A stretch of DNA of 64,000 nucleotides from a virus. Taxonomy: Duplodnaviria > Caudoviricetes. The position numbers and the translations under genes were made by a program. The stretch covers positions 1 to 64,000 of the IMG/VR virus record IMGVR_UViG_3300028591_000121. One strand, given 5' to 3'. Shown here in pieces: positions 1 to 63,698 of this stretch. The notes beneath the pieces are model-generated. The model had not been told where the DNA came from. It did not search any database and saw only the letters and a program-made list of their open reading frames with translations. Position 1 is the stretch's first letter, and every line of letters starts with the position of its first letter.

Positions 1-3000
1 TTTTAATGTTACTACTTCCGTCAGCTAATTCTACGCCTGTAGAATAAGAGTCAAATGTGGAATAGCTTCCTTCTTCAACATCCCATCCCTTAGCGTTCAT
101 GGCTTGCCAAGGAACTTTCTTACGATTAAAAGTAACACCGCTTCTCTCATCGATCAAGCTTTGTCCATATTGTTCAAGTTGATCTCTTGTCATCCCGGCG
201 GCTTTAGCAACTTTATTCCAGGCTTCTTCCTGTCCTTTGGCTACCTTCTGACCTTTCGAGCTTTCGATCTCGGCATTAATAGCTTCTATTGTATTCTTGT
301 AAAGAAGTACATCTTCGTTGAGTTTTGTCCATACGGAATCCCAACCGACCCCAGCTTTTAATAAGTCCTGATTAACTTGAGCATATGTTGCCAGATTCTC
401 AACAGCTTCATTCCATTTGTCAGTTCCCTTTTCAAGAACATTATCCTGAATAGCAGAGTACTGACCAAGAGCTTTATGTAAGTCGTTGATTCCTTTCCGC
501 ATCGCCTCAGCCTGAGTATGGAACTCACTTGTTCCGGCTTTCTTAGGATCAAGCAGAGTAGAAGTTCCGGGGAGAACTTTCTTCGTTCTGTCATCCGTGT
601 CTTCATAGAGCTTCAGTAATTTCTTATCGAGGTTGTACTTGATCTTTTCTACTACATCATCAGTAATATTATTTGCTTCTTCAGATGTAATGCCAAGATA
701 CTCAAGCATCTTCTTCTTATCAGTAGACTTTGCTCCGTCATAAAGCTTATGGAAAGCTTCAGAGAAGTTATCGACATTCACGCCGTCAAGCTTAGTCTGT
801 AACGTCTCAAGGAAATACATAGTTTCTTCAGCGGACTTGGTAGTCTCACCCGTTGCATCAGAGAATGCGGCTTTCAGAGCAGTCGACCAACCTTCAACAG
901 AGTTCGTAACCTTAGACATGAACTCTTCATCCCAGACAGTCTCTGCAAACTTATCTGAGTCAGGAGTAAACTCTTGTTCAGCAAGGTATTCGATAATTTT
1001 TTTCCTTATACTCTCTTCAAACCCGCTGACTAATTCAAATACAGCATCTGCGTTTCCGTCTTCCGCTGTTTTAGCCATTAACTCCAGATACGGATCAAGT
1101 TCGTTTGTGGCATTCTTGGCATCTTCAGCAAGTTGTTCATTTTGCGCTGTCCTGTTTTCAACTTCTGATTTATACTCTTCAATCCATTCTGCTTGCATGT
1201 CATACCAATACGCCATCAAGTCAGCTACAGTGAAAGCTGATTCGTTTGTAATATCTGTGCCAACTTTTTCAAGCTCAGGCATACGTGCAATCATCTTATC
1301 GTATAAAGGCTTATTGTTTTCCTTTATTGTATTTAGTCTTGCGTTGAATGTTTCCGTATTGTAAGTACCGTCTTCCCGTCTATCTCCCAAAAACTTTTCA
1401 TACTGATCTTGGAAACCCTTAGACCAGGCTCTCATTGCGTCATCTTGTTTCTTTACAAGATCCTCAACTGTTTCCTGTTTAGGAGTTTCCGTGGAAGATG
1501 TTGCCTGTTCAGCGGTCTTTACCATGTCATCGCCAAGTTTTTTCAGAGTTCCGTCATAAAGATCATTATACTTGTCTACGAGATCATTATACGCTTTTTG
1601 ATTTTCTTTTGTCGGTTCAGCGTTAAAAGTATCAAAAGCAGTCTGAAGTTCTTTGTCTGCTTTTTTAAGTTCTACTGCTCGTTCTTCTTGATTTTTCTTA
1701 TATTCAGAATTTGCAGAGACATACAACTTTTTGATTTGATCGGCGGTGTTTTTGAACTCTCCTGTATAATCTTCATTATCCCAATCAAATTGATCAATTA
1801 TAGCCTCGGCTTGTTCATTTAATGCTTCAGCCATAAACGACGGCAAATTAGAATCATCAATAAATGCTCGAAGCAGTTCACCCGTCATATTTCTAATTTC
1901 GTTTTTCTGACTCTCAAGTTGACCAGCATTTACGGCATAACTATCTATTGTCTCTGTAACTGCATCAATAAAAGCTTGGTTTTCTTTTCGTGAGAATAAA
2001 GCTTCAGTATATTCCTTATAATCATTCGGGTCAGCAAGCTCATAATTACCCAAAGCTAATGGACTTAATTTGTATGGTTGTCCATTTGGTTTCATAATCC
2101 CTAAATGATCTGCAAAATACTCGGATATCTCATCAAATGCTTCATAAGATTTAAGACCCTCATTGGTATTATCTATTATCGTATCTATGAGCATCTGTTC
2201 AATCATTTCTCTGGCACTATATTTTACTCCGCCTTTTTCAAATATATAAGTTCCATTTGAACTTTGCGTAGAAAAGCCATAATTAGTACCAGTATATTCA
2301 AATATGCCTTGCATTTTAGAACGTTGAGCTGCAACGTCATCTTCTAATGTTTTTGCTTTCTTCGTAGATTCAGCCAAAGTCGGCAAAGATTCCTAGGCTT
2401 TTTGTCTGGCAACTTCTTTTGATAATTCAATATTGCGCTCAAGCTGTTCATTAACAGCATTAATAACGCCTTCTTGATAGGAATATACATCGCTTACCCC
2501 TTGTAAAGCATCCCGAACTCCCGGAGACATCGACTCTAATTGAGAAAGTATCTCTTTAAGTCGAGCAGTATCATCCGCACTCTTGTCCGCCTTTAAAGAT
2601 AATTCTGCATATTCATCTCTCTATGATTTGAGGCTTGTATTGTCTTTAATCATATCTTGCTGTGCAGTCGAAACATCTTTAATCGCTTGCTTTGATTTGT
2701 CAATACTATCTTGTAGACCTTTAAATTTATCAGCCATTGTAGGCACGTCATGGCTAATCATAGCACCAAGTAAAGACACAATAGCAATAACAGCCGCCAC
2801 TCCTGCGACAACCAAACCAATCTTAGTTCCAAAAGATCCTCCGGCAGTAAACCATTCGACTAAACTCATTCCTGCCATCGTCTTTTTAAGTGAAGCAAAT
2901 CCCGCAATCTATGCAACTATCCCTCCAGTTACGACAGGAATAATCACATTAAATCCACTCATACTTTCTGTCGCTTGGACAAAACCGTTTGCAATTCCTG

Positions 3001-6000
3001 CTCCAATATCATGTAATCCTTTAATAGTGTTTGCGTTTAATAAAGAGGAGTACACATTTTCCAAAGCCTGTTTGAATCTATCAGCGGCTGCCGTTGCGGA
3101 TTCCATATAAGTAGCGTAGCTATTTGCAACAGAACCAGAACTATTCATAGCGATATTGTAAAGTTCCATCGCACGAGAAGCACCTTCGTCCGCCTTAGCC
3201 AAGTCATTCATTAAGGCGATAAAGAAGTTCTGTTGACGAGTGCCGGCCATTGTAGTGGAGATATAAGATTTCTGTTTGTCAGTCAGATCGTCCCACTTTG
3301 TACCAATATCTTCGAATATCTCATTCAAGTCTCTCCAGTTGCCTTCTGTATCCATAAGAGTTACACCGATAGTACGAAGAGCTTTAGCTACGTCATTGAT
3401 CTTCGTCTCGTCTTCTTCGTTAAAACCAGTCTGCTTAATTTGACGAAGACGTGCAATCATTGTATTTAAAGAAGTTCCGACTGCTTCAGGAGCAAGTCGA
3501 GTCTTTTCAGAAAGAGTTGCTATATAGGCAGAAAGATATTCCAAAGAAAGTCCTGCTTCACCCGCAACGCTTGCAACCTTCTGAGCAGCAGTACCAATTT
3601 CTTCACCACTACTTGCAGCTGCATTACCGACAGCGGTAAACATACTTGCGACTTCTTCCGCATTGTAACCTACTCTAGTCGTAACCTCTCCTGCTTCTTC
3701 AACTGTCCGCACATAACTTGAATAAGCATTTATAGTTGCGGTCATTAATTCAGTGGCAGTGTTTATTTCGAGTCCAGAAGTCTTTGAATACATTGTTATA
3801 TATTTCAGACGCTCATTCACTTGTTCGTCGCTCAAGCCCTGACGATACAGAGTAATTGCAGACTTTGCGAGTTCTTGAGAAGTTATATTCATTTCCTTCG
3901 CAAGCTGGCGATAATTCTGACCGAGAACCAGAGATTCTTCCTCACTCTTACCAGTAACAATACGGATCTCATTCAGTGCATCGTAATATTCTGTTACATA
4001 CGAAGTTGCATTCTTCCAGAGAGTACGGAGTCCTCGCATCTAAATATAAGTCTTCGCAAGTTGAGCCAATCTGTCGAGAGATCTGTTATCTGCCTTCTCA
4101 TTATTATCGGAATTCTTTCTTTGTTCTTGGCCTAATTCTCCGATAGCTTTTTTCATTTCCCCTACATTCTTAGCCAACTCTTTATACTTATCAGACTCTT
4201 TATCCTATAAGGACATATATTGTTCTGCGTCTTTGATTGCATTCTTATATTTAGAAATTGTTACCTCAGCACTTTCTTGTTCCGTAGAGTCTCCAGACTC
4301 TTTAGCTGCTTTATATCTTTCTATTGCCTTTGTAAGTTCGTCGTAAGAATCAGCAAAATTTTTTCTATTCAAAGCCATTTCTGAATATGAACGAGCCGCG
4401 TCGGCAGAAGTAGCTGCTTTCTTAACAGCTTCGAGCTTTTCATATTCTTTGTGTTCTCTTTTGATCTGCTCAATTCTTCTCTCTGCGTCTTCGAGTTCTA
4501 CTCTTTCAGCTCCAGTTAATGAATGCTGTGCTCGTTTCTCGTACAGTCTCTGAATATCTTCATACTTCTGAAGCTATTCAGTCTATGCGGCAGATGCCTC
4601 ATTCTGAGTTTTTGTTATTTGAGAATTCTGGAAAGCCATTTCCTGTTCTTTTGCAAGGTCTCTGTAAGCTTCCTGACACTTTTGCACTGTCGCATACAGA
4701 CTATTAAATGCTGTGTCCTAGGTATTAACTTGCGTGTCATCCCCAGTCTTCTCGAACTCGGCCTGAGCTTTTTCTCTCAGATTCAGAACAGCCTGCATCC
4801 TAGCATACAGAACGTTTACGTAATCCTTGTCTTCGCCATCATTTATGCTGCCAGGGGTAAAACCTTTTTTACCCGCAGTCACTTCAGCTAGTTTAAGTCT
4901 TAATTCTGTAAGCTTATTCTATTCATTCTCCATCTCGTCCGCATCCAGTAGTCCAGTTGCCATATTTGCTTTGGCTTCATTAATGCGTTTGTATAACGAT
5001 TCGACCTCAGCCCTCGTAGCTTTTAATTCTTTGGCTTCCTTACTTTCGTTTTTCGATGCGTCCCTACGGGCTTCATCTGTTTTCAGTTTAGCTTTACGTA
5101 AATTCAACTAAGCTTCTGTTTCTTCTTCTATTTCTGATATTGAATTCTCTCTATTTTGATTAGTATACGGAGCATTCTGAGCATCTTTTAATGCCTCTTT
5201 GATTTTATTTATTTTTTCTATTGTCTTATCTATTTCAACTTGCAGAGCTTCATAGTAATCTTCTCCGGGCTTATATTTTAGCTGATCATTTTGAAGCTCC
5301 CTTTGTCTTTTAGTAAGTTTTTCCCACTCGTCATAATATTTTTTCACACGAGCAGTACCTTCATCAACCTCTTCATTAGCTTCATCAATAGCAGCTTTGG
5401 TACGGGTTAAGTCAAGATTGTGGTATGCAGTCCTGCGCTCTATACGGGCTTCTCTGTTTTTATCACGATCAGCTTCGTCATAATTTAAGAAACCTTTTGA
5501 CGTTATATTACCGTCTACATCTTTAACACCGTTCTTGACTTTATCCATTAACTCCTATAAAGTATTCATTTCTTCCTGAGCTTTATCGATCGTATCAGTA
5601 GGAGTATTATCAGGGAAGGATTGAAGTCTTTTTTGAACAGCATACAATCTTTGCTCATATTCTTCGTATTCTTTATAAAGTTGGCTAACTTCATCAGACA
5701 CACGTTTTCTTTTTGCTTCCGTATTATCGGTCTTTGTTTCGTCAGTCTTCTTTATACTATCTCCGACCTTCGAACCGTCTGTAGCTGCTTTATGAATTGC
5801 GTCAAGATTTATTCCGGCAACCGCTGTCTCTATAGATTTTATAGCATCAACAAGAGTTTTAATCGCTTCAATAGCGGGACCAAAATTAAACGCCGTATTA
5901 ATATTTGCAATCTTTTCAGGAATCTGCGCCGTAGCTTCGTCGAATCCTTTAAACAATCCGCTGAAATCAATTGCCGGAACTGCTTTTAACTGACCGTTCG

Positions 6001-9000
6001 CTTGATTAATAGCGTTAATAATTCCATTAGTCATCTGAGTAATTTGCTGTCCTGCTTGAGCTGCCACACCACCGCCACCGGCTCCGCTTGTAACCGTGGC
6101 AGTAGAAGTATCGAACACCGCCATAGGATCTTTAAATTTAGAAACATCTCCTTTTAAAGCTCCCATCAACGACTCAACAGTAAGTCCCATTTCTGAAGCA
6201 ACCTGTTCAACAGTAGGTTTCTACAACGCCATTCTTTCCTCAGCGGTCTTTGCTTCAGAAAGAAGTCTATTCATAACTTCTTCTCTAGCTGTAAAGAATT
6301 TATGAAAGATATCAAATTCAGATCCTTGCAGTATTTGTCCGTCTTTATCTAACATGCCTGCATCTTGCGCGGCTTTTTGTTTTTCCAGGAATGTTTTACG
6401 CTATTCATCTCTTTTACGGAAAGCTTCCGAAAGAGCTTCTTCAATCTCTTCCTGCTTTACATTATATAAATCAATAGTATCTTGGCTTATCGCACCGACT
6501 GCAAAATTATCTTGTCTACGATATAAGAAGTCAGATTTATTTTCCATCTGTGCTACTTCTTGAAGTTGCGCTTCGTATTCTTTTTTGGCAGCACTAAATT
6601 CTTTAAAGATGGGAAGATATTTCTGAACATACTTTGTATAATCTTCGGAGATTTTAAGTTCACCCTGGAGATCTTCCATAAGTTGCTGTAATTGCAATTG
6701 ACTATCCTAAGACGGATTGGAATGTTCTCCTACTCTAATATTGTTAGCAGATACGATAGGTTCTATTTCTTTACCTATTACATCTCGAATATGCTCTGCT
6801 TCTTTTAATTCTGCTTGCAAAGCTGCGAGTTCTGCTTCGAGCGCATTTGTTGCATTATCTTTATCGTTTTCGGTAGTCCCTGTGACACGCATCCTCGCAT
6901 AACTGACTTCACGTAAAGATTGTAAAGATTCTATTAATGATTCATGCGCTTCTTTGTAACGAGCTAAAGGCCCATTCTCATAATCGGAAACAAGTTGCTC
7001 ATGCTTCTTTACGGCTTCTTCAATTTTTGTTTTTAAAGCTTGAAACTCCTTATATCTCTCGTCAAGAACATTTAATGCAGCATCATCTTCTGCTTGTGTT
7101 GCTTCTCCTCTGGAATACTTAGCATGAGTTTCTTGATAAGCTTTATCGGCTTCTTCCATTAACTGCTTCTGTTTACCATAGGCTTCAATAAGCTCATTCA
7201 CATTTTTTGTATCTTCTTCAATGGCTCTCTTTGCTTCATCGGCATTAGCTTTAGCTTCAGTATCTTTTGTTTTGGCATTTTTGTATTTTGTAATAACACC
7301 GTTAGTATTCTGTAAAAGATCCATATCTTTTTCATACTGATCCTAATCAGCTTTATACTCTGCAGCAATTCTCTTAAAATCATCACGCTTTAACTTTGCA
7401 GCCTTCAACTTTTCCTGTATCTCGTTTGTTTCTTCTTGTTCGTTTTCAGCACCAATGGCTTGAATTTCCAATGTTTGAAGTTCTTTCCTTGCACGTTGAA
7501 GATCGTCTGCTAGAGTTTTTAATGTGCTCTTTTTTTCTTCAATTCGCTTTCTGACTTTTTCTATTTCTTCTTTTTCAGCATCATCAAAATCTTGTGCTCG
7601 CAGTTCACCCCATGTAAAATTACTTTCTGGACTGATCATAGTATATAAATCAGAACCAGCAATTTGAGGAGTTTCTGCTTTACTTGTCATACTTGCATAA
7701 TTCTTACTAATCTTATCAATCTCATCTTGAGAATCGCTGATTTCTTTTTCGGATTCACTAATTAACGACAAGGTCTTTGCAATCTGTTCTTTTTTAGCTT
7801 GAATAGCCTTCTTTAGATTCTCATATTCGCCTTTACTAGTATGAAGAGAAAGTTCCTGTTCGAGCTTATGAACCTGCTCATCCGCTTCATTAAACTTATC
7901 TATATTGTGAGTCAATTCCGTATAAGCTTCTTCTGCATCCCAAGCAGTCGATAAAGCTGGGTTTATTCTTCTGTATCCATTATAAGCAAGACTAGTATCC
8001 GATAATTGATCTATCTCATCTTGTATATCGTTAACAGCTTTAATTGCATCCAGATATCCTTTTATCTTTCTAATCGTCTTCTGCTTGTCATTCTCAAACT
8101 GAGACATCTGCTGATCTACAGCATCTACTTCTTTCAAATGGGTAGCAACTCGTTCAGCGACTTCTTTTTTGCCACCTTCTAAACTGAGATTAGCACGAGC
8201 CTCATTTAAAGCACTAAACTTTTCACTTATTTGCTTGTATTCTTCAATCGTTGAATCTATCTGAGGTAACAAATCCGGCGTTTTAAGTTTTGCTGCTTCC
8301 GCTCGTTTCTCAATAGATTCCTGATAGGCTTGAGCATATTCAACAGCGGCTTCTCCGGCTTCAGTAAGTTTCTTCCCGTCTTTCTGGTCTTTAGTGGAAA
8401 CAGTCTCATACATTCCATCTTGAATACGTTTCTCGGCTTCGGCCATTCTCTGCTAGGCTTTAAGAGATTCCTCATCCTATTGACTTTGCGTGTTCGTAGC
8501 AATAACAAGCTGGTCATTAATTAACTTACTTCTGCGTGTCATGATATCCGCAATTTGTCCAGAAACAGATCTATTCTCTTCTTCCAAGGGATCTAAGACT
8601 TTAGACAAATCTCTCTTTTTACTTTGTAAATCACTTAAAGCTTTTTGATCATCTTCAGTCTTTTTATCCTTGCCTTTAATTGCTTCAATCTGCGCATCAA
8701 TCTCTTGCTCTTGTGCTCTCTAAGGTTTTAATTTATCTAATAACTTATCTCGTTCTGCTAATAATTCGTCAAGTTGATTATTATAATCATTAATTTGTTT
8801 ACCAGAACTCATTCGCTCCAGTAATTTCTTATTCGCTTCCTTATGTCCAGGGAACAGAATTTCCATCAACTCATTTTGAGCACGTTCTCTTTCTGCTTGA
8901 AGTGCTTTCTATTCTGCCTTGTCATTTGCTAAATTCTTTTTTGCTTTTTCAACGGCTTCAATGGCGGAATCTATTTTCTTCTGTTCATCAGCGGTAGGTT

Positions 9001-11353
9001 CTCTTTCCAGATAAACACCGGCTTCGTCAGTTTTTCTTCTACCGGTAGCTTTATCTATTTCATATTTCGCGTTATCTGCTTGTTTTTTAATTTCATTTGC
9101 AGCCTGAAGGGCTTCTCTTCGTGCAGTAACCAACTTTCCTGTTAACTTAGTACGATTTTCGATGTCCTTAATTTCTGCTTCTGCCTTCGCAATTTCTTCC
9201 TTTAAACTTTCTTGTGTGTTTTCTTCAGGTTGCCAAGGGACTCGAACAGCAATCGTCTTTGCTGATTGTGCTATTTCAGCCTGAGCTTGATTAACAGCCT
9301 GTTGCGAAGTAACGGCCTGAGCTTTTAATTTATTCTAATTCGCAGTATTCTCTGCGATTCTTTTTATTAATTCATCTTTTTTTTCTTCTAAAGCTGTTTC
9401 ATCGTCCTCTAATTCAGAGATTCTATCTCGTGGATCTTCCAATGCGGTATCATCCTAGTCGATCACGATATCTTCATCGCTATTATTAATTGCTTCAGCG
9501 ACATCTTCCAATGACGTGACTTTAGAAGCTTCTTCTTTTAACTCTTTCTTCTTTTCCCTCTACTCCGCTAATTCTTTTTTCAAATTATCTAAAGCTACGT
9601 TATCTTCCTCAATATCTTGAGTCTATGCTTCTATTAACATATTCCTTCCTTCGTTGGATATTCCAGAAGATGTAGAAGCACCGACTACTGGCTGTGTCGA
9701 ATCCGCAAGTTCATTATTTAACTGTCCTACCTTGCTAACCGCTTCTTGTGTCGCAACCGCAAATTGATTCATTCCTGCTGTCATCTGTCCTAAATAAATA
9801 TTAACACCATTGCCGGAACTAAAAGCCGCCGCAATGCTTTCAATATTTGCACGGATAGATTCAACTGAAGTAGTCAATAAAGCCATCTGAGCAGGATCGA
9901 TATTGATAATATTACCAGTGGTTTCTTTCAAACCCTACGCAGCCTTTTTCGAAATTCCTGTGAGGGCTTTAAAAGCACTATTGCTAATTTTGTTAAGAGT
10001 ATCTTCATCCATTTCACTGGTAATCTTAGCGATCTCGTTTTTTTCCTGTTCGGTCACTTGCTGATAAACCTTTACCAATGCACCGATCTCATTCTGAGCT
10101 ATCTTGCTCATGCCAGATAAAAGTCTCTTAAAATCACCAAGGCTTTCTACGACATTAGAAATATCAAATCCTTGAATTGATTCAAGAGCAGTCGTAATAT
10201 CTCCAGATCTTGAAACCACGTCATTTGTAAGACCAATTAATTGCTGTTGCATTTGTGAAAGATTCTGCACGGTGGCTTCAAGGGTTAACCCCTTCATCGC
10301 ATCATTAAAAGACTTTATCATTGTAGAAAGAGAATCACCAACTGGAGTCGCTTTATCTTGAATATCCGTAAGAGAATCAGATATCTGCTTTAACTGCTCA
10401 ACCGCTTGAATCTCAATCGTTTGATCTGCCTTAGTGCCATTTTTTATTTCTTGAACAAACTCCTAATATTTTTCTCTAATTCTTTTAAAAGCACTTTCGA
10501 ACGGGCTAACCATTCTATCCTAAATCTGACCCCAGTTATTTTCAAAATTCCTGAACTCATCACCGTTCATTACTTTCGCAAGAGATCTCATATTATCAAT
10601 CATCACTTGCTCATTAAGAGATCCTGCCTTCACCGCATCTGCATAACCTTGGTAAAGTCTAGCCATTAAATTTAAGGATTGCGTTGTCTGCTTATAAATC
10701 TGATTAGCTTTCCCGTCATCAGTCTTCGTAACAGAAAACGCAGTCTGCTATTGATCTACATGCTTTGACATTTTATCCATTGCAGATTCAAGATCTTGTA
10801 TTTGATTAAGAGCACTCTCAAAAGGTTTCTTTGTGACTATTCCTTCCTTGTTCATACTCCCATTAAAAATTCTTGCCAGCCTATTCATCTCTTTGCTGAA
10901 AGCTGCGATCTTTTCTTTGAAATCCGCAAGCGGAACAATATTATCTAAATCAACTGCCTTCCCGCTATCGATTGCATTCTTTACGTCTGCGCTGGTTGTG
11001 TTGAAAGCTTTCCCGATTCGTTCGATTTGTCCAACGACACCACTTAAATCCGCTTTGGCAAAGACAGATTCCATCTTAGTAACAGTTGCGCTGAATTTAT
11101 CGACACTTGTGGACATTTTGCCGAAATCGACAGTAGCGACACGACTAGCAAAGTCATCCAGTACCCTCGTTACTTGACGATTCATCCCGCTAATCACATT
11201 AACCATATCATTAATCTGAGTTTTCAGCGGAGATAAGTCAAGAGATTTGCCTGTTTTACTTTGGAAAGCGTCTACGCTTTTAGAAGCTTCCTGTAAACTT
11301 TTTATTAAACCAGATACATCAAGGTCTAAACTAGCAATAACTTCTTCTGCCAT
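1..11353 (-). CDS. Tail tape measure protein, >3,780 aa, runs off the left edge; continuous only with TAG read as a sense codon (Leu)
   Basis: ORF-track fragments 10748-11353, 9935-10321, 9623-9931, 8909-9133, 7343-8446, 6707-7324, 6401-6697, 5555-6190, 5108-5548, 4919-5107, 2909-4039 and 2621-2878 share one frame, and the fragment ends I checked are TAG. Coiled-coil composition; TP901-type tape-measure core at ~2909-4039 (EAVGTSLNTMIARL, AGTRQQN); hydrophobic segments at 2700-2950. Confidence 0.92.
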
Positions 11354-12049: not shown

Positions 12050-12388
12050 TTAACTCTTCTTTTGATTCCGCTGACTTAAATGTCCGAACAGATCAGCCAG
12101 ACCTCTGTTCTGAGAAGTAACCTTCTGTCCACCTTCTTGAATCAGTGTCATCGGATTATGTTCCATAATCATATCCCAGGATTTCTCTACGAAGCTATTC
12201 CCCGCATAATTTGAAATCCCGTCATACGTAATCCTATGTCCAAGCTGTTCAAGAATATCTTCAAAGAATATATAATTCATCCGATTTATTTGTTTCTCGT
12301 CAACAACTCCAAGATATGTCGCAACAAGGGCAACAGCCTTGTCTAGACTTATTTCGCCCCCTGACTCTTGGGGGCCATCAGGTTTTTT
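12050..12388 (-). CDS. -1 frameshift extension (gpGT-like) of the tail assembly chaperone
   Basis: The -1 frame is open from the slippery heptamer A-AAA-AAC (12388-12382) through ...GEISLDKAVALVATYLG...MNYIFFEDIL to 12050. Confidence 0.75.
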   Translation of the reverse strand, partial: KKPDGPQESGGEISLDKAVALVATYLGVVDEKQINRMNYIFFEDILEQLGHRITYDGISNYAGNSFVEKSWDMIMEHNPMTLIQEGGQKVTSQNRGLADLFGHLSQRNQKKS

Positions 12389-12864
12389 AGCTTTTCTTCC
12401 TTCTCTTTAATCTTATTCACTCGAATAAAAATCTCCACTAGCTTATCGATTGTATCCTGTGTAATAAGATTATAGTTCGTCTTAACAAGCTCCTCATTAT
12501 CCGTAATCGCAATTAACCAGTCGAACGTAGCCTTATCTCCGTCTCGTCCGCCCAGGTCTTTCTCTGTAAAGTTAAGCAGCTCTCCAATCGGATACACTTG
12601 CAATACGTGATAAAAGTTCGCTGTCTTATTTCTAAAATATTCCTACTTGGTTGGGAATATCTCAATCGGAGTATTCCCGAACAGAACCATATTCTCAGGA
12701 TGACCCGTCTTCGGTAATTCCTTCTTTTCGGTTTCTGCGGAAGGAATCTCTTTCTTGTTTTGCTTTGGATCAGGAAGTTCTTTGTGTTCCTGTTCGGTAG
12801 ACGGTGTTTCAACCATCGGCTGTTCAGTGTCTGGGGTATCCTATTTCTTTCTCCTCGTTGCCAT
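12349..12864 (-). CDS. Tail assembly chaperone (gpG-like), 2 in-frame TAG
   Basis: ATG at 12864 with GGAG RBS; TAG at 12841-12843 and 12643-12645 (IFPTK*EYFRN); lies between the major tail and tape measure genes; slippery site near the 3' end. Confidence 0.75.
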
Positions 12865-12926
12865 CGTCCTTCAACTCCTTTAGATAAAAAGAAAATCCCT
12901 ATGCTTCTCACATAGGGTACATTTAT

Positions 12927-13190
12927 TTAGTCAGGATAACATACGTTCTGAAACTTCTTGTATGCATCCAGATAAGTTTCATGTTTATCTCCATTGTGAG
13001 TAATCTCATAATACATCCCGTCAGGAACAACTGTACTCAGTAAGGCTTTCCAATTCTGTAATGTCTTCGAAAACCACACAATGTATACGTCCTTTGCGGT
13101 GATTGCGAAATTATCTGTCTTCTCTGCATGACTGTTAAAGTATTCGCACACCAATTCCTTCGCCCTTTTAAACATAGCATCATTATCCAT
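12927..13190 (-). CDS. Small conserved phage protein (DUF6275-like)
   Basis: Motif VYIVWFSKTLQNWKALLST..DGMYYEITHNGDK.E.YLDAYKK recognised; flanked by hairpins, so it looks like an inserted gene. Confidence 0.65.
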   Translation of the reverse strand: MDNDAMFKRAKELVCEYFNSHAEKTDNFAITAKDVYIVWFSKTLQNWKALLSTVVPDGMYYEITHNGDKHETYLDAYKKFQNVCYPD

Positions 13191-13231
13191 TTCGATTCCT
13201 TCTTCCTTTATACTTTATACTCTATAAAGAC

Positions 13232-13256
13232 GGGAGACGGAATAAATCCGTCTCCC
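13232..13256 (-). terminator. Rho-independent terminator after the major tail gene
   Basis: 10-bp stem GGGAGACGGA-ATAAA-TCCGTCTCCC. Confidence 0.6.
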
Positions 13257-13269
13257 TAGATTAGACTGA

Positions 13270-14118
13270 TTAACCCCAGTCAACTTCGGTAGCGTCGCTC
13301 TTAACAACGATATTGCCATCGGCATCAAGAGGTTCGTAGCTCCATTCATAGGTACGGCCGTCAGCACGCTGAGGGTCAATAACGGAGAATGTGAGACCGA
13401 AGGTCTGTGCGCTCTTGTAGCTGGCGTTGATACCAGGGGTCTGAGTCACACGGACACGATAGTAGTAGATATGCAGCCAGCCCTTCAAGTTAGCGTCTTC
13501 GCAAGAACCACCGTCGGAATACACCGGGAAGTGCATGGCAAGAGCACCCTTAGCAGTGGTAGAAGTATTGCGGACGATAACACGATGAGCGTCCACGATC
13601 CGGCGATGGTAGCTCACACGGATCTCGTCACCGACAGTAGCATCAGCAGCGTTCAGAGTAATCTCGGTCTTGCCATCGGTATTAGCAGCCGCAGCGGTAA
13701 TTGCCACAGCGAACTTACCTTCGGCAGCAGTGGTAGCTTCTTCCAGGCCACGGATGGAAACGGAGTTAGCCTGCACTTCGTAAGGCAGAGTAATCTTCAG
13801 ACCTTCCTTAACTTCGAACCGCTTGCTCTCCAGCATGCCGATATCGCCAACGGAAACCTTTTCAGCATTAGCCAGTTCGAAAATGTCCAGAGTGAACTCA
13901 GAAGATTCGAAGCTGATTTCAACAGTAGAGTCGGTGTCGATGTGAGCCAGGGGCAGACGATACTGACCACCAGTAATATCCTAACCATTCAGAGTGAAGT
14001 TAGAGGAAGCGGTGTTCACCTTATCATAGGAGAAGACCGTGCCGTCGCAACGTTCAAAGTCAATGTTAGGAGTGTCGATAACATAGCCCTTCGCAATATC
14101 TAAATAAATTGCACCCAT
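13270..14118 (-). CDS. Major tail (tube) protein, 1 in-frame TAG
   Basis: ATG at 14118 with AGGAGG RBS; TAG at 13981-13983 (NG*DITGGQ); high-expression codon bias; position in the tail module. Confidence 0.8.
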
Positions 14119-14174
14119 ATTTTATTCCTCCTTGATTGGTATGGCGATCTATGAATCCGCCTAATTCATACCCG

Positions 14175-14651
14175 TCATACAGTCTCTTTATAAGAAAAGA
14201 CAACGTGATACCTTTTGTATCCCGCCATCTTTGTCCACTAGTCATAACTGTCTACAAAGCGAAACTTCATTCCAAACAAATGAGGTTCGCTTGTCTATAA
14301 AAGTTTTAATCTGTCCTTTATAAGTCTTGTTCTTTTACGAAGTCGATCCACAGGATCTGCGTCATAGAGATAATCATCCCGGACATACACATCAAAATGT
14401 TTAGACCGCATCAGGACTTCTTTATTTCCTGAATCAACATTCTCTCCGTCATACACTACGATACGCACTTTTTCATCCGTCAGCTATTCTCCACCGTTCT
14501 CATCTTCGAGCCAATACTTCTGGACAAAATGCAAAATGTTAATATCTTTTGGAAGCAACATCAGTTCCTGCATAATGGGATCGTCAAATATAACATATCG
14601 CAAAATGCTGTTCCAATTGTCATCCCATGTCCTTCCCATCATTGCACTCAT
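14175..14651 (-). CDS. Putative tail terminator/completion protein, 3 in-frame TAG (absent from the ORF track)
   Basis: MSAMMGRTWDDNWNSILRYVIF...GE*LTDEK...KLL*TS...YD*WTKMAGYKRY...ETV-TGA; 158 aa. Confidence 0.75.
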
Positions 14652-14664
14652 CTGTTTCACTTCC

Positions 14665-15180
14665 TTAATGAAATTTTATAAATGAACCAAAATCCACACT
14701 CAACAAGCGATTCTCTAGGATGGAAGTCTAGTCATAACTCTTCGCATTGGCGAGTGAATTTTCAAGAACTGGATGTCCTACTTTTAAATACTTCTTTATA
14801 GGATGAGCATGCTTTGCTGTACTGGTATGCTTGCTGTCAAGATGGTGTCCCCAGACTTGCGCTCCTGGTTTTGACATAGGGCCTTCTCCGCCACTCTCGT
14901 CATTACCCCATTCCTCAACGGCTGCCCTGTGAAGAACATGTTCTTCCGAACCAGGAATAACGCTTGCGCTACACTTGATCATTTCACCCTCTTGAGTTGG
15001 GGGATGTCCGTCAATGTAACCACGAACAGAGCTTGTGAAATCAAAGTCTCGCCAATCATCAGGCCTGTTAATGTTTAACTCTTTAATAAGACAAGACCCT
15101 AAGATATCCTGAACATCTTTCATTCCCTCTGTCTATGCGCTCATCATTTCGGAATGTAATCCATTCACGTCAATACCCAT
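14665..15180 (-). CDS. Putative neck/tail-completion protein, 2 in-frame TAG
   Basis: MGIDVNGLHSEMMSA*TEGMKDV...SYD*TSILENRLL...FH-TAA; extends ORF 14728-15123 at both ends. Confidence 0.7.
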
Positions 15181-15988
15181 TGTTATCAACTCCACCGCCA
15201 ACACGCTTACCGAATACACTCAGCACCCCATGCATTTTATCGATATGAACCTCAGCCGTAGAAATATCAACAACACGATAATCAAAAAGACCGATCTTAA
15301 ACTCGTCATCGATTCGAATCTTTCTCGTCTCGTTATTCCATTGCATATATACGGAGATCAGGTCGTTCGAGTTAATACCGGGCATGCCAGAAGAAATACT
15401 ATAATCAGGTCTGCCAGCGTACAGGGCATGGGATGTAGGAATATCTTTAACAATAATCTCATACTTTCCTGTCTCATCCAACTCCACTCCGTCTTTCTTT
15501 TCAGGCAATGCAAATGCGTATCTGTCGCTTGCGATTCTATGTTCTCTTCTGAATGTAAGATAGTCATTACACTCAACGGACTGAGTCGCTTGGTTGTTCG
15601 CATGGTTCTGTACATTCCAGTTCAGGAGATACAGTGCACCATCTTCCCGTATTGCATAATCCCCTTTATAAATCTCAACATTATGTTCAACCTTAAAGTT
15701 CGTACTCATATCTGAGTTACCGATCTTAGACTTCCAATCGATAGGAGTCTGCTGCGCTCTGATCCGATACGGTTCTTCTGGTTTGTTATACCAGTCATGT
15801 ATGATATCAAACCACCAGTTCACATAAGGCTTATCTTCATAAAGTTCGTTATGCCAATCTGAGTACAAGGTAGCAGGATCTCTGAACCTACGATTAGTTT
15901 TTATTTGAGGATTTGGACGTAAGGCTTCATCGTCGAAAGAATCCGCAGACTCAACTTCGCTTTTCCTCTTGTTCAAGATACGTCCCAT
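15170..15988 (-). CDS. Putative head-closure / head-tail joining protein
   Basis: Start MGRILNKRK with GGGGTG RBS; beta-rich; position in the head-tail module. Confidence 0.65.
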   Translation of the reverse strand: MGRILNKRKSEVESADSFDDEALRPNPQIKTNRRFRDPATLYSDWHNELYEDKPYVNWWFDIIHDWYNKPEEPYRIRAQQTPIDWKSKIGNSDMSTNFKVEHNVEIYKGDYAIREDGALYLLNWNVQNHANNQATQSVECNDYLTFRREHRIASDRYAFALPEKKDGVELDETGKYEIIVKDIPTSHALYAGRPDYSISSGMPGINSNDLISVYMQWNNETRKIRIDDEFKIGLFDYRVVDISTAEVHIDKMHGVLSVFGKRVGGGVDNNGY

Positions 15989-16280
15989 CGCCAACACCCC
16001 CGTATACAATACACTGCGGAAGTCGGCCAACTTCTCCTGCTTTATCCAAAAGCTTGTGTTTGATCTTAGCAAATCTAGCCCAGGTCTCATCTGCCCATTT
16101 CTCTTTTGGCAGACCACCTGTCGCTTCATAGACAAGATCTTCAACATCAGTAATCATCCGCATCATATCATTTCTGATCATTTGCGTATATTCATCAAGA
16201 CTGTACATATAGTCTGCAACAGGCATCAGCTTTTCATTGCGGTATACAATATGTACACTCAAGTTCTTTTTCTCTTCCAT
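15951..16280 (-). CDS. Hypothetical protein (109 aa)
   Basis: Intact ORF with RBS, overlapping the downstream gene. Confidence 0.65.
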   Translation of the reverse strand: MEEKKNLSVHIVYRNEKLMPVADYMYSLDEYTQMIRNDMMRMITDVEDLVYEATGGLPKEKWADETWARFAKIKHKLLDKAGEVGRLPQCIVYGGVGDGTYLEQEEKRS

Positions 16281-16299
16281 TTTCCTACCGCCTCTTCCC

Positions 16300-16725
16300 T
16301 TACAGCATGTTGTACCTAGTCATCTTATGCCACATCTGGGTCTGTTCAGAACGTGCGAGATTCAGCATTTCAGTTACATTCTTGAACGGTTTGTCTCCGT
16401 TCGTAACGCTCATAGCATCTGTGGTATAGCTCTCTGTTTCACTCAGATCTCCCCTGACTTTATCAAGGAACTATAACTGAGCGGTCGCAAGAATATACCG
16501 CTGTTCGTCAAGCATAAAGTCTGCTTTGAAATACTGAGGTTTCCCATCTTCATCGAGAACAACAAGATCTTCAGAATATTCCGCAGATTTCCCAGCCATG
16601 ACATAGAAATGCTCAATCGCATCCAGAATAAAGTCGCACATATCATCCAGGTCTAAATCTTCTGGAACTTCCTGCCATTCGATTCGGTTGACAAGTTTCT
16701 TTGTCTACTTAATCAGATCTGTCAT
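16300..16725 (-). CDS. Putative head-tail adaptor, 2 in-frame TAG (absent from the ORF track)
   Basis: MTDLIK*TKKLVNRIEWQEVP...TAQL*FLDKV...SYTTDAMSVTNGDKPF...NML-TAA; GGAG RBS. Confidence 0.75.
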
Positions 16726-17227: not shown

Positions 17228-18253
17228 TTAGTTGGACAGATCCTTGTACACGGACATATAGGGCTGTTCGCCATACACGAAACCGCAACCAAATTCCTGA
17301 TCCAGACGGATTTCCCAAGTGAGATCGTCGATGTGACGAGCTTCCATAGACTGCACCGGACCCTTGGTGAAGACCTTGAGCGGACGCATATCAGCAGAAG
17401 CAGCGGTCGGGAAGATGAACATAACCTTGGGATTAAGGACAGTCTCAGAGATGCTGCCGTCCTTATAGGGGTTCATCATCGTAGCCACGTCAGCACCAAG
17501 ATAACGACCAATGTAGCCGTTCTGGTTCTGTTCAAGGATAATGTTGTCAGCGAACTGCTGGGTAGCAGGATTCTCGACAGTCTTGAAGCCAGTCAGTTCA
17601 GCAAGCTGCTGAGTGGTCTCAATATCGCCAACGATACCAACGCCACCATAACGCATCCAGTGACGAATCAGAGGATCAATACCAGACTTCAGAACACCAG
17701 AACCTTCAGCATAGAAGGGAGAACCCGCAGTCAGAGTACCAGTCCTGTTGTAGTTGGCTTCGAGAACTTCACGGATATAGCCGAGCTTGGCGTTCTCCAT
17801 CTTCACAGCGGCATCAGACACAAGATCAGCCATCTTAACCACACCACGATTGATGTCAGCAATCGTCATGAAAGGACGAGCGGACACAGTCAGGGAGTCA
17901 AGAGTGACGGTCTTGTGAGCGATACGGCTACGAGGAGTCGTAGAACCCATAGCCTGGATATAAGCCTGAATGCCTTCCAGACCAACAGTAAACTTAGGAG
18001 TGTCGTTCACACCCAGAACCTTATAGTCAGCAATGCGATTCAGGAAATCGCTCATGGGCTTAACCAGTTCATCCACAGAGAAACCAACCAGCTGGGCCAG
18101 TGCATGCATATTCATGGGATTGGGATCTTCCGCAATCACCTGAAGCTATTTATTCAGCTTATCTAAATCACCAGAGTCAATACGTTCCTTGCGGGTCTCT
18201 GCGACCATAATCTTTACCGCAGGATCGTCACGACGGATAATAATATCAGACAT
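17228..18253 (-). CDS. Major capsid protein (341 aa), 1 in-frame TAG
   Basis: ATG at 18253 with GAGGTG RBS; TAG at 18146-18148 (DKLNK*LQVIAED); strong codon bias; follows the scaffold and decoration genes; downstream hairpin at ~17188-17214. Confidence 0.85.
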
Positions 18254-18752: not shown

Positions 18753-20162
18753 TTACCGTCCAGAAATAATTCCACCGAAAGTCATATCATCAATAATCCC
18801 AGCATAACTGGAAAAGATTTGACCAACGGGATTGGACTGATCTTTATTTTCAGATTCTTCTGTAGTCTTCTTGGCAGCCTGTGCCACTGCTACACTGAGA
18901 TCTGCAAGCTTCTCATAATCCAGAGAAGCAATCGCCGATTTAACCTCTTCATCTTCAATATTCAGCCCCATAGTTTCCGCATAAACAGTAGCCTTATTCA
19001 GCTTCTGATCATGCTCCATCTTCTGGGCGGCTTCTTTATATTGATTCAGTTCGGCTTGAATTGCATCATAGTCTTTGACCTTCTCCTGAAGACTTGCGAT
19101 CATAGACTCTTGTTCCGCAATCGTTTCCTGCATCCGAGTAATACGAGTCACGTAAGTTTCCTCGACTGTTTCGATAACCCGATTCATTTCAGGCGGTCTG
19201 TCGCTGACTTCTTCGGCCTTGGCTTCTTCCTTATTTTCTTCGGGAGTCTCTTCTTTCTTCTCGTCCTCATTAGCGGGGGCTTCCTCTGCGGAAGCTTCTT
19301 CTTTCTTCTGCTCTTCCGTATTGTCTTCAGGCTTTACCTCTTCGCCTTTCTCGTCAACGGCAGCATTAGCTTCAGCAGCCACATTGGGTTCGTCTTCAAA
19401 ATCAGATACACGCTCAACAGTCTGTTCACTTGCGGTGTCTATCATTACTTCTTCGACAGTAGAAGCATTCGCTTCATTCACTTTGTCCATTTCTTCGTTC
19501 ACCTCGTTTGTATCTGTCCCAGACTTCTCTACTGTTTCGCTGATAATTTGAGTCGGTTCAGTATTATCCGTAAGCTCCGCTTCTGCTTCCGCAACCTAAT
19601 CAAGAGCAACCGCTTCAGGATATGCGGGTACAGAGACGATTGCCATCCCATTTAACGTATTTGTTTCTGCGGCATCCACATACATAACTTTGCCGTCATA
19701 AATTACGTGATCAGGATCATACGTCAACTCGAAAGAAAAGCATAAAATTCCTTTGTCATACATTTCCTTCACTGCTGCACAGATATCGGATTCTCTTTTC
19801 GGAATTCTAACTTCTCCGTATAAACATGTGCCAAACTCATCCTTTACCTTTTCAAAAGAATTGAGAGCGAAACTCCCAATCTGGTCAGTCCCGAAAGTAT
19901 GTGTAATACGATTAAACTTATGTCCAAGCTGCTCGTACCTTCCGGCCTAAAGATTCATCTTATCTGCGTACAAAGGAGTACAGTCATATTTCTCAGGGTT
20001 CGCAACAATCTCGTCAATAAATGCTTCTGTAACACCCTGTTCATTTCTGTTCCCGTTCGTAGACTACATACGCATCTTCACTGACATGAATTGGTTATTA
20101 GTCTGCTGTTCGGCCAGCAAAACATCAGAAGCCAGAACAAACATACTATTCCGACTATCCAT
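18753..20162 (-). CDS. Prohead protease-scaffold fusion (469 aa), 3 in-frame TAG, all in the protease domain
   Basis: N-terminal domain ...FSFEL...GMAIVSVPAYPEAVALD*VAE resembles HK97-type proteases; C-terminal half is an acidic coiled-coil scaffold; possible nested start at 19490. Confidence 0.8.
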
Positions 20163-21961: not shown

Positions 21962-21978
21962 AACTACGCCTCTCCTCC

Positions 21979-24593: not shown

Positions 24594-24617
24594 TTGCTTT
24601 CCCCCTTTTGGTATAAG

Positions 24618-24652: not shown

Positions 24653-24656
24653 TAAC

Positions 24657-29145: not shown

Positions 29146-29149
29146 ATAG

Positions 29150-62610: not shown

Positions 62611-63024
62611 ATGAATAAGATTTCTTTTCCATACTTTGTAGATGTAGGGTATGGGAATACATTCAACACGGATTGTATTTAGGGTGTAATCAGAGTAGGC
62701 ACAAGAGGTGCAGATCGTACCCTTGACTGGGCTAAGAAGAACAGAAAAGTCTGGGATTGCCGTATGAATAAGACTCTGAACTCTATCTTCCTGCTGACAA
62801 ATGGAGATGTGGTTATGTCCCACTTGTCACTGGAGACTGCGAGAAAGCGTCTCAACTCCGGCATTCGACTTGCTGCCGACCCACCCGTCGAAGATAACGA
62901 GTGTCGATACACGGAAGTTATTATCCCAGAGACTCCGATTGTATTCCCTAAGCCAGCCCCTAAAGTTATTGACACTGAAGATATTTTTGATGAGGACGAT
63001 TTCGAGGAGAGTGAAAATGAATGA
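62611..63024 (+). CDS. RemA/DUF370-family protein, 1 in-frame TAG
   Basis: FVDVGYGN..NTDCI*GVI...K...SIFLLTNG.VVMS.LSLET..KRL matches the RemA pattern (INIGFGN...RIIAIV...VILS.V.PET..RL); TAG at 62680-62682. Confidence 0.7.
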
Positions 63025-63698
63025 TTGAACTGCAGCCTTGTGCGAGGATTTAGTTTCCGACAACACCAGAACAAGGAGTGGAGATGTAGAAACTGTGTGA
63101 GTATGCGGCAAGAAATTGCTACAACACTACAGCTAAGATGACTGAGACGAGCTACCAAAAGATGATCCCCGCCTAGCTTAAAAAAGGACACGAGTCTCCG
63201 ATTGAACACTCGCTTATGATTGCGGAGATTGTTACTGGGCGAGATGTTATGGCTGAACTGACCAGGCATCGACTGAACAGCTTCTCAATCCGCAGTCAGA
63301 GATATGTAGATGAATGCAAGACTGGCGATATTGCATTCTGTGTTCCGCATTTTGAAAGGTACGGAGAAGAGAAAGCCCATGTCCTGTATAGTCTCTGGAA
63401 AGAAGATTGTTTAGCTTGTGAGGAAAGCTACAAGTATCTGAAGGAAGCAGGAGCGATTAATGAGGACGCACGTAAGGTTCTGATTAACTCTACTGCTACT
63501 CAGATCATAATGAGCGGTAACCTTAGATCCTGGAGACATGTATTTCAACTGCGGACAGCGAAGGATGTGTATCCTGAGTGCAGGATCGTTATGTGTGAGT
63601 TGCTCGAAAAAGCCAAGCTGATGTATCCCACAGTGTTTGACGATATTATTCCTGATGCAGCAGAGGAGAACGACGATGGCAATAGTAAAGAATCCTAA
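63021..63698 (+). CDS. thyX: Flavin-dependent thymidylate synthase, 3 in-frame TAG
   Basis: AARNCY, GHESPIEH, ELTRHR..SFS..SQRY, ARKVL, NLRSWRH..LR; TAG at 63051, 63087 and 63174. Confidence 0.92.

Follow-up and report, generated by a model that had tools for sequence, protein, structure and literature searches.

A ruminant-gut phage that very probably uses TAG as a leucine codon and carries a suppressor tRNA resembling tRNA-Leu

Insertion of Leu at amber codons is known from Escherichia coli, where the suppressor supP/Su6 is a tRNA-Leu whose anticodon has been mutated from CAA to CUA. Among phages whose genetic code differs from that of their hosts, only two reassignments, TAG to Gln and TGA to Trp, have been observed (Borges et al., preprint, 10.1101/2021.08.26.457843). 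TAG-to-Gln recoding (code 15) is found in the crAss-like, Lak, Garnet, and Topaz phages and in phAss-1, and TGA-to-Trp recoding corresponds to code 4 (10.1101/2021.08.26.457843; Peters et al., PMC9523058; PMC10607447). The isotypes predicted for phage suppressor tRNAs (tRNA-Sup) are Gln, Trp, Ile, and Tyr, with no Leu among them (PMC10879173). Outside the phages, TAG specifies Leu in chlorophycean mitochondria (NCBI table 16), in chytrid mitochondria, and in phyllopharyngean ciliates (PMC6551751, PMC6131824, PMC11687900). No report of TAG-to-Leu recoding in a phage was found in the phage literature searched. The suggestion, made in an earlier sequence-only reading of this DNA, that such a code had not been described in phages thus holds within that literature, and the survey cited above agrees with it (10.1101/2021.08.26.457843).

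The 64,000-nt window analyzed here is the 64 kb at the beginning of a phage contig of 119,416 bp, the termini of which share a 141-bp repeat. Contigs of this phage were found in sheep, goat, and bovine sequencing runs belonging to 18 studies. The explanation that best accounts for the data as a whole, and one that we hold to be very likely, is that the contig represents a complete phage of ~119 kb from ruminant-gut Clostridia in which TAG is a leucine codon; its own host has not been identified. A related TAG-using element (L071) is carried on a 300-kb contig (C59) of the Eubacteriales metagenome-assembled genome G001. The prfA gene is intact in G001 (515 bits) but is located on a different contig (C61).

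All 14 peptide motifs that the sequence-only reading had quoted as containing TAG were found exactly, with TAG at each of the marked positions. They are located in ThyX, the RemA-like protein, TerL, portal, ORF 18753-20162, the HTH gene, ORF 17228-18253, and the giant ORF (Table 1). Its observation that essential genes are split by TAG and rejoin in frame was borne out for TerL (3 TAGs), portal (8 TAGs), and ThyX (3 TAGs): with TAG read through, each of these forms a single frame that is collinear with full-length homologs. The "protease" label that it had attached to ORF 18753-20162 is unconfirmed; the matching family, phrog_3313, has no known function. The longest frame has 1,077 codons with TAG as a stop and about 3,785 with TAG read through. 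The greedy ORF set contains 152 in-frame TAGs genome-wide, including 105 within ORFs of at least 150 aa, and the stop that interrupts the recoded frames is always TAG, never TAA or TGA. In the ORF set, genes terminate at TAA or TGA by construction, and their ends hence are not independent evidence. Naive six-frame ORF coverage was tried as a test of the code and dropped: it was nondiscriminating, with TAA-as-sense scoring highest. The evidence therefore consists of homolog-supported rejoining of frames, not of coding density.

Comparison with four independent assemblies of 94 to 97.6% nucleotide identity found TAG kept at 15 of the 18 compared sites. Of the other three, one is in tRNA-Met, outside the coding sequence. 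The portal site 21506-21508 has TAG in the window and TTG in strains L002 and L007. None of the 40 listed differences from the Logan contigs affected any of the 11 TAG codons that lie in the compared stretch (139 further differences were unlisted). This read-coverage comparison involved Logan contigs only, from which read-level error cannot be assessed. Contigs from RNA libraries also cover the compared stretch, which does not in itself prove transcription.

Table 1. Features of the 64,000-nt window that bear on the decoding of TAG
Feature	Coordinates	Strand	Assignment or basis	In-frame TAGs
Giant virion ORF	2..11353	-	>3,784 codons	27
Five virion-module ORFs	12349..16725 (12349-12864, 13270-14118, 14175-14660, 14665-15219, 16300-16725)	-	ORF list	10 together
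Virion structural protein (one of the five)	13270-14118	-	Matches phrog_2729	
YonB-family virion protein	17228..18253	-	phrog_4088; homolog in L005 has Pfam PF27364 YonB	1
Head-module protein, family unknown	18753..20162	-	phrog_3313, function unknown	3
Portal	20270..21988	-	PHROG portal phrog_2739	8
TerL, large terminase	21979..23700	-	Pfam Terminase_6N	3 (23539-41, 22945-47, 22927-29)
Endonuclease-like ORF	about 23697-24653	-		2 real
tRNA-Met	24656-24728		Between the endonuclease-like ORF and the metallophosphatase/exonuclease	
Metallophosphatase/exonuclease	24929-26230	-	Pfam Metallophos; PHROG exonuclease phrog_284	1
Suppressor tRNA, anticodon CUA	29149..29224	-	ARAGORN; Rfam tRNA, 54.8 bits	
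Sigma-factor-like HTH regulator	29997..30413	-	Pfam GerE; PHROG sigma factor phrog_3512	5
RemA-like protein	62611..63024	+	Pfam RemA-like; motif confirmed, no homolog tally	1
ThyX, flavin-dependent thymidylate synthase	63021..63698	+	Pfam Thy1, E 8.5e-40	3

The residue specified by TAG was inferred from alignment columns. In a control tally, in which all 64 codons were scored against 61 related loci, every one of the 61 sense codons recovered its standard residue. The conserved TAG columns had Leu in 15 cases out of 16 and Phe in the remaining one; the binomial probability of 15/16 Leu arising by chance is 1.7e-15. When 30 TAG columns were considered, Leu was the majority residue in 21, and the ln likelihood ratio favored Leu by 77.9 over Gln, 29.1 over Ile, and 21.8 over Met. 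The summed weight across 31 TAG columns was 17.6 for Leu and 0.15 for Gln. In the reciprocal test, 337 in-frame TAGs of the relatives were compared with the window residue, which was Leu in 136 cases, TAG in 46, Ile in 36, and Gln in none (background frequencies, 7.4% for Leu and 3.6% for Gln). The spill-over into Met, Ile, and Val at TAG columns does not differ from that at sense codons for Leu, e.g., CTG and CTT. The Codetta-type tally that the sequence-only reading had proposed thus came out decisively for Leu, and its interpretation of TAG as Leu is further supported by the reciprocal test, the TAG/TTG swap between strains, and the Leu-type tRNA(CUA) described below. With TAG aligned to Leu and the other sense codons standard, the assignments are those of NCBI table 16; table 22 was excluded, as TCA reads Ser in the tally. 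This assignment remains an inference from homology alone, without protein or tRNA-charging data.

Among 120 TerL homologs, the three TAG columns contain Leu in 116 of 118 sequences; Leu in 84 and Met in 34; and Ala in 70, Val in 40, Ile in 5, and Leu in 2. In TerL relatives with 78 to 81% identity, all three TAG sites are occupied by Leu codons (CTG, TTG, CTC, or TTA). The TAG columns of portal include those with Leu in 54/54, 56/56, 43/56, and 36/56 sequences. Some TAG columns are non-Leu in the homologs, e.g., Ala/Val in TerL and Asp or Glu/Thr in portal, as is expected at variable positions. The three columns of ORF 18753-20162 have Leu (32 sequences) and Met (15); Leu (24) and Arg (12); and Phe (16), Leu (12), and Cys (12), and the single column of the YonB-family protein has Leu (19), TAG (9), and Val (3). 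The columns of the five virion-module ORFs are mostly Leu, e.g., 27/27, 27/30, and 14/16. Those of the endonuclease-like/metallophosphatase region include Leu in 24 and Met in 14 sequences and Leu in 23 of 45; an apparent third TAG of ORF 23697-24824 falls within tRNA-Met. The giant virion ORF overruns the start of the window and resumes at the opposite end of the contig. Its homologs (four long relatives with 36 to 40% identity) reach only 4 of its TAG columns, which contain Val, Leu, Phe, or a mixture of Leu, Val, and Thr and are hydrophobic and uninformative.

The sigma-like HTH regulator, with 5 TAGs in 138 codons, has the highest TAG density in the window, and its codon 35 (30309-30311) is TAG in 14 relatives and a Leu codon in 15. 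ThyX is an early gene with many homologs that have Leu or Ile at all three TAG columns; in the 120 homologs used, these columns contain Ile in 39 and Leu in 37, Leu in 88, and Leu in 109 sequences. Alignments with ThyX proteins from the PDB were set aside as too distant, with a single informative site among the three (Ile in the homologs), and the 120 closer homologs were used in their place.

The tRNA(CUA) of the window measures 75 to 76 nt. Its D stem has 3 bp, its variable loop has 7 nt (GUCUUUU) in place of a long (class II) variable arm, and it has a G1-U72 pair and A73. In E. coli, A15:U48 is a Leu identity element, and leucyl-tRNA synthetase (LeuRS) does not read the anticodon; bacterial tRNA-Leu is defined by a long variable arm. 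In a 12-sequence alignment (A2), A15, U48, and A73 are invariant, and each of the 19 CUA tRNAs from the clade that could be scored has the A15:U48 and A73 combination. Within the related host genome G001, only the tRNA-Leu (five) and that genome's own pair of CUA tRNAs have it. The combination is also seen in some tRNAs for Ala, Ile, Met, and Pro that are carried by phages. Both tRNA-Gln of G001 have G73, in contrast to A73 in the phage tRNA(CUA). The best 30 matches of tRNA(CUA) among 400 Clostridia genomes included 24 tRNA-Leu and no tRNA-Gln, with the matches spanning only the T arm and the 3' acceptor strand. A tRNA-Leu(UAG) from L105 has a 5' acceptor strand and T arm exactly as in the phage tRNA(CUA). 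Positions 7 to 68 show 78% identity to a short tRNA from L104 with the Leu anticodon AAG; the short-arm tRNAs of L104 with anticodons AAG and UAA sit on the scaffold of tRNA(CUA). Phage-encoded short-arm sense tRNA-Leu genes are found in L104 (AAG and UAA), L028 (UAA; 75 nt), and L057 (CAA; 76 nt).

The loci of relatives encode 30 further CUA tRNAs, and in many relatives these have long arms (84 to 92 nt), several with a Leu-type D arm. Nearest-neighbor isotype assignment against one host tRNA set was ambiguous for the window tRNA (Gly 75 versus Leu 74); this crude procedure was right for only 49 of 117 controls and was given little weight. The best overall explanation, and to us a highly probable one, is that the phage tRNA(CUA) arose from a tRNA-Leu by shortening of the variable arm, while its acceptor stem, T arm, A73 discriminator, and A15:U48 pair remained those of Clostridial tRNA-Leu. 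The ARAGORN label "Pyl" was rejected, as it reflects the anticodon alone and the TAG columns are Leu across the virion genes; the synthetase search, which was for class I enzymes and not for pylS or pylBCD in particular, was negative. Decoding of ATA as Leu by a tRNA(UAU) with a long variable arm was likewise rejected: the ATA columns are Ile in 6 cases out of 9, and the body of that tRNA is not Leu-like.

The frequency of TAG per 1,000 codons is 6.4 in the late block versus 1.1 in the early block, where the majority of TAGs fall upstream of the true gene starts. TAG makes up ~8% of the Leu codons in the virion/late genes but is nearly absent from those of the replication block. About 12 relatives have TAG in no gene other than the sigma-like gene and/or its neighbor; the sigma-like regulator lies just upstream of the tRNA(CUA) gene. 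Searches of the phage genome revealed no release factor gene, no recognizable anti-RF1 function, and no class I aminoacyl-tRNA synthetase, and a promoter/terminator scan of the 26.5- to 33.6-kb region found sites no more numerous than in shuffled sequence. Since LeuRS does not read the anticodon, the host enzyme would be expected to charge tRNA(CUA) with Leu, an inference for which there are no charging data. At UAG, the charged tRNA would compete with the host release factor 1 (RF1) and insert Leu. Given the bias of TAG to late genes and the TAG-rich sigma-like regulator, late expression probably depends on the suppressor tRNA being made, which would act as a gate.

Could TAG instead encode Gln, as in the crAss-like, Lak, and other recoded gut phages that use code 15? 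The literature searched reports no other TAG assignment for phages, and public pipelines have used Gln in proteins of close relatives (P0001 and P0121), but in P0001 the Q was set by the pipeline and is flagged "with_TAG=Q." None of the 16 conserved columns has Gln as its consensus, and in none of the 30 TAG columns is it the majority residue; with the ln likelihood ratio of 77.9 for Leu, no window Gln opposite any of the relatives' 337 TAGs, A73 in place of the G73 of the related host's tRNA-Gln, and no tRNA-Gln among the 30 best tRNA matches, we regard this assignment as virtually ruled out. There is also next to no room for the view that the TAGs are untranslated, being either assembly or sequencing errors or marks of pseudogenes in a decaying element. 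This view is contradicted by the 15 of 18 sites that are TAG in every covering assembly, these being four independent assemblies from other samples, and by the absence of TAA and TGA from the same frames. It is also at odds with the recurrence of the phage contigs across 18 studies with sheep, goat, or bovine runs, with the placement of TAGs at Leu columns far beyond chance, and with carriage of a matching CUA tRNA. Homologs do have Met, Ile, Val, or Phe in some TAG columns, and the window tRNA(CUA) has no long arm and shares A15:U48 and A73 with certain phage tRNAs for Ala, Ile, Met, and Pro. TAG might accordingly stand for a hydrophobic residue other than Leu (Met, Ile, or Phe) or be ambiguous, with a synthetase other than LeuRS charging the short-arm tRNA. 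We consider this very improbable, as the likelihood ratios favor Leu over Met (21.8) and Ile (29.1), the Met/Ile/Val spill-over matches that of the Leu codons CTG and CTT, and an identical tRNA scaffold bears the Leu anticodons AAG and UAA.

A further possibility, which refines the reading of TAG as a leucine codon and does not exclude it, is partial reassignment: RF1 would still stop at TAG, and substoichiometric Leu read-through would serve mainly to control dosage or timing. It is consistent with the lack of a release factor gene or recognizable anti-RF1 function in the phage genome, with the intact prfA in G001, the genome that holds a related element, and with the scarcity of TAG in early genes and its restriction in low-TAG relatives to the sigma-like gene and its neighbor. 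On the other hand, the giant ORF would need 27 consecutive read-throughs, and portal would need 8. Inefficient suppression could hardly achieve this, unless the tRNA outcompetes RF1 by a wide margin. Partial reassignment thus remains conceivable but, in our judgment, rather unlikely.

Beyond this single phage, it is likely that a whole clade of ~100- to 120-kb gut and rumen Clostridia phages and prophages, distant relatives of SPbeta/c-st, uses a virus-imposed TAG=Leu code. Its suppressors would derive from tRNA-Leu and range from long-arm to short-arm forms, and the code would have grown from a gate of one or two codons in the sigma-like gene, which adjoins the tRNA gene, into the virion genes. 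If true, no virus before this clade would have been shown to assign TAG to Leu. The code inferred for the phage described here would add a third stop-recoding assignment, with a different synthetase, to TAG-to-Gln and TGA-to-Trp. It would contradict the generalization that limits such takeover to GlnRS and TrpRS, as the hijackable synthetases would not be just these two. The clade's series of long- to short-arm CUA tRNAs, together with the relatives that have TAG only in the regulator, would provide a natural system for studying how codes begin, and its CUA tRNAs would be ready-made Leu amber suppressors for Firmicutes.

There are also practical consequences. Among the phage stop recodings, gene callers implement only the TAG-to-Gln and TGA-to-Trp tables, and pipelines restore the frames yet place the wrong residue at >100 positions per genome. 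The warning of the sequence-only reading that table 15 pipelines would do so proved justified, as the public translations from close relatives, P0001 and P0121, carry Q at TAG sites; such Q-for-L translations are already present in public protein databases. Structure prediction, proteomic searches, and phylogenies would be affected, and this phage group is abundant in the ruminant and human gut. For mass spectrometry, Leu and Ile are isobaric.

The described phage resembles other recoded gut phages in its habitat, in the concentration of recoded stops in late and structural genes, and in having its own CUA suppressor tRNA with no dedicated synthetase; that its host, too, uses the standard code is a presumption. 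It differs from the code 15 phages in the inferred residue, Leu rather than Gln, and in a tRNA that appears to derive from tRNA-Leu. Like NCBI table 16, its code has TAG as Leu, TAA and TGA as stops, and the rest standard, which is an identity of tables and not a sign of common descent. Unlike the table 16 systems, which are organellar or nuclear codes of eukaryotes that apply to the whole genome, this code appears to be imposed by a virus on a bacterium presumed to use the standard code and to affect mainly late genes. The phage tRNA and supP/Su6 both combine a tRNA-Leu body with the anticodon CUA, which is workable because LeuRS ignores the anticodon. A single base separates the anticodon CAA from CUA, and likewise the codon TTG from TAG. 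Unlike supP/Su6, the phage tRNA belongs to a natural, conserved, phage-borne gene family and rescues no mutation; the copy in the studied phage has no long variable arm and serves >100 codons. The phage short-arm tRNA-Leu genes share with this copy the 3-bp D stem, A15:U48, A73, and a variable loop of 5 to 7 nt, but they read CUN and UUR codons, whereas the window copy is predicted to read the stop codon UAG.

TAG is very probably read as Leu in this phage, with no direct evidence from protein or tRNA charging. All 14 peptide strings in which the sequence-only reading had placed amber codons are found in the window, with TAG exactly at the marked positions. As that reading had held, essential genes are split by TAG: TerL, portal, and ThyX are fragmented under table 11 but, with TAG read through, form single frames that are collinear with full-length homologs and contain no TAA or TGA interruptions. 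In four independent assemblies of this phage species, obtained from other samples and 94 to 97.6% identical in nucleotide sequence, 15 of the 18 sites compared are TAG as well, a retention that marks these codons, at the sequence level, as real and inherited rather than errors. The three differing sites are TAG/TTG at 21506-21508, TAG/TTT at 21809-21811, and one inside tRNA-Met.

TerL alignment A1 led to 62 IMG/VR loci, taken with 10-kb flanks. Each window ORF was aligned to the stop-to-stop frames of the relatives, and the consensus residue at each window codon was taken from at least 5 of them. In this tally, which had been suggested along with the Leu assignment and which returns the standard amino acid for 61 of 61 sense codons (including ATA as Ile and TCA as Ser), 15 of the 16 conserved TAG columns are Leu and one is Phe, with no Gln; the chance of 15/16 Leu columns is 1.7e-15. 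Leu is the majority residue in 21 of the 30 TAG columns with data, and over these 30 columns, with emission probabilities learned from sense codons, the ln likelihood ratio is 77.9 for Leu over Gln and 21.8 for Leu over Met. In 120 database homologs, the three TAG columns of TerL contain L in 116 of 118 sequences, L in 84 and M in 34, and A in 70, V in 40, I in 5, and L in 2, respectively; at all three sites, the two closest standard TerL translations (81% identity) show Leu, encoded by CTG, CTC, TTG, or TTA. ThyX is an early gene for which many homologs exist; its three columns contain I (39) and L (37), L (88), and L (109). Most relatives use in-frame TAG themselves. In the reverse test, 337 TAG codons of relatives face 136 Leu, 46 TAG, 71 I/M/V, and 0 Gln in the window, against a background of 7.4% Leu and 3.6% Gln; the outcome is alike for relatives located in bacterial MAGs. 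The codon tally, the homolog columns, and the reverse test thus bear out the proposal that TAG stands for Leu and not Gln, and the aligned relatives suggest a clade-wide TAG-to-Leu pattern.

Gln at the examined TAG sites is confined to P0001 and P0121, public TerL and ThyX translations of close relatives, the former flagged as translated “with_TAG=Q”; the warning that table 15 pipelines would insert the wrong residue was justified. P0121 also has Q at one ordinary Leu codon of the window, which means that this codon is TAG in that strain. Both are table 15 calls, so that TerL and ThyX of the window phage species (L007) already stand in public databases with Gln at TAG sites.

The window is the initial 64 kb of a 119,416-bp record whose last 141 bases are identical to the first 141; this identity points to a circularly assembled, apparently complete genome; its CheckV completeness is 100%, and its GC content is 44%. 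The giant virion ORF has up to about 1,100 further codons at the far contig end (G000 C1 116055-119414), and its conservation in long relatives is limited to a stretch of about 600 residues. At about 21961, where the opening codons of the portal ORF as annotated overlap the TerL end, 4 bases are missing in contigs of three other runs, so the true portal start is probably further downstream. The closest deposited phages are far off, with TerL identity of 32% to Clostridium phage c-st and 27% to the SPbeta group. Contigs related to it were recovered from viromes of rumen and gut and from MAGs of Clostridia/Eubacteriales. The phage itself occurs in gut runs of sheep, goat, and bovine origin that belong to 18 studies.

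Features of the window and their coordinates
Feature	Position	Strand	Remarks
Late block, virion and packaging genes	2-32,327	-	Pfam/PHROG annotation
Giant virion ORF	2-11353	-	>3,784 codons in window; crosses contig junction
YonB-family protein	17228-18253	-	
Portal	20270-21988	-	
Large terminase (TerL)	21979-23700	-	
Other structural proteins	within 2-32,327	-	
tRNA(UAU)	26864-26952	-	88-89 nt
DUF2828 + DUF7788 gene	27315-28763	-	no TAG; phrog_850 “RNA-binding protein,” E 1.9e-128
tRNA(CUA)	29149-29224	-	ARAGORN; Rfam 54.8 bits
Sigma-factor-like regulator	29997-30413	-	5 TAG in 138 codons
Early block, replication and nucleotide-metabolism genes	about 33.2-63.7 kb	+	RemA-like gene and ThyX at its end

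Four tRNA genes are found in the window, all on the minus strand of the late block. The ARAGORN label “Pyl” for the CUA tRNA, the predicted amber suppressor, reflects the anticodon only. This tRNA has a 3-bp D stem, a 7-nt variable loop, G1-U72, and A73, and its best 30 BLAST matches in 400 Clostridia genomes include 24 tRNA-Leu, 3 tRNA-His, and one each of tRNA-Thr and tRNA-Ser, with no tRNA-Gln. One Clostridia tRNA-Leu(UAG) is identical to it in the 5' acceptor strand and the entire T arm. Among full-length matches, the best is a 78-nt short-arm tRNA, 78% identical over positions 7-68, whose anticodon is AAG (Leu); it has the same D arm and an identical variable loop and adjoins a 77-nt short-arm tRNA-Leu(UAA). 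These two genes, which share the scaffold of the CUA tRNA, belong to a tRNA array in a Clostridia genome (L104, G071:C23, about 1411-1568 in locus coordinates) that is probably prophage-borne. Short-arm tRNA-Leu(UAA) and tRNA-Leu(CAA) are also found in relatives of the phage. The DUF2828 + DUF7788 gene has the CUA tRNA on one side and the UAU and Asn tRNAs on the other. The tRNA(UAU) has a class-I-like D arm and body, G1-U72, and A73, yet a variable region of ~20 nt, and its counterparts in relatives are ordinary 74- to 77-nt tRNAs; the codon tally, with Ile in 6 of 9 ATA columns, does not point to a recoded ATA.

LeuRS is blind to the anticodon, its identity elements in E. coli include A73 and A15:U48, and the classical suppressor Su6/supP is a CAA-to-CUA mutant of tRNA-Leu. 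The loci of relatives contain 30 CUA tRNAs (21 distinct), many of them 84 to 92 nt long with a long variable arm, several of these with a typical tRNA-Leu D arm, and the rest short like that of the window. A15:U48 and A73 are present in all 19 scoreable CUA tRNAs. Within the tRNA set of G001, a Eubacteriales MAG that serves as a related host genome, this combination is found only in the five tRNA-Leu and in the two CUA tRNAs of G001 itself, and both tRNA-Gln have G73. A nearest-neighbor comparison of the window tRNA with one host tRNA set, a crude method and a poor classifier, was ambiguous.

No release factor or class-I synthetase was found encoded in the phage genome, which suggests that the CUA tRNA would be charged by a host enzyme and would compete with host RF1. 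G001 encodes, besides its two tRNA(CUA) genes, an intact prfA and prfB-like genes; its related TAG-using element (L071) resides on a 300-kb contig, and the intact prfA lies elsewhere in the MAG, on a different contig. If culturable, G001 and its element are a candidate experimental host-prophage pair.

TAG accounts for 7.9% of Leu codons in the late block (6.4 per 1000 codons). The early block has 1.1 per 1000 codons, most of them upstream of likely true starts and the remainder only in ThyX and the RemA-like gene. TAG density peaks in the sigma-factor-like regulator, which shares the strand of the CUA tRNA and is located two genes upstream of it; at codon 35 of the regulator, 14 relatives have TAG and 15 have Leu. 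In about 12 relatives (L013, L017, L018, L033, L037, L040, L041, L051, L056, L057, L059, and L062), there is essentially no in-frame TAG across 2,000 to 4,000 aligned codons, except for one each in the sigma-like gene (at window codon 35) and/or its neighbor, the homolog of 29244-29951. The CUA tRNA is adjacent in most of them and was not found in the fetched stretch of L017, L018, and L056. In these relatives, recoding looks to be at a minimal “gate” stage. By inference, suppressor tRNA production may gate translation of the late regulator and virion genes, which agrees with a model put forward for recoded phages of other kinds (10.1101/2021.08.26.457843); also by inference, wide TAG use could have grown out of such a gate. 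A promoter and terminator scan around the tRNA/regulator region returned nothing above chance.

A survey of recoded phages observed only TAG-to-Gln and TGA-to-Trp (preprint 10.1101/2021.08.26.457843), the recoded tables available in annotation tools are 15 and 4, and the predicted tRNA-Sup isotypes are Gln, Trp, Ile, and Tyr (PMC10879173). The literature searched, which left out most subscription journals and so does not prove absence, contains no description of a phage with TAG-to-Leu; within that scope, the suggestion that the code is undescribed in phages stands. The observation of in-frame TAG codons is confirmed, and its interpretation as a Leu codon is supported. As a biological system, the phage belongs to the stop-codon-recoded phages; its codon table is that of NCBI table 16, which chlorophycean and chytrid mitochondria use and which has more recently also been described in phyllopharyngean ciliates (PMC6551751, PMC6131824, PMC11687900).
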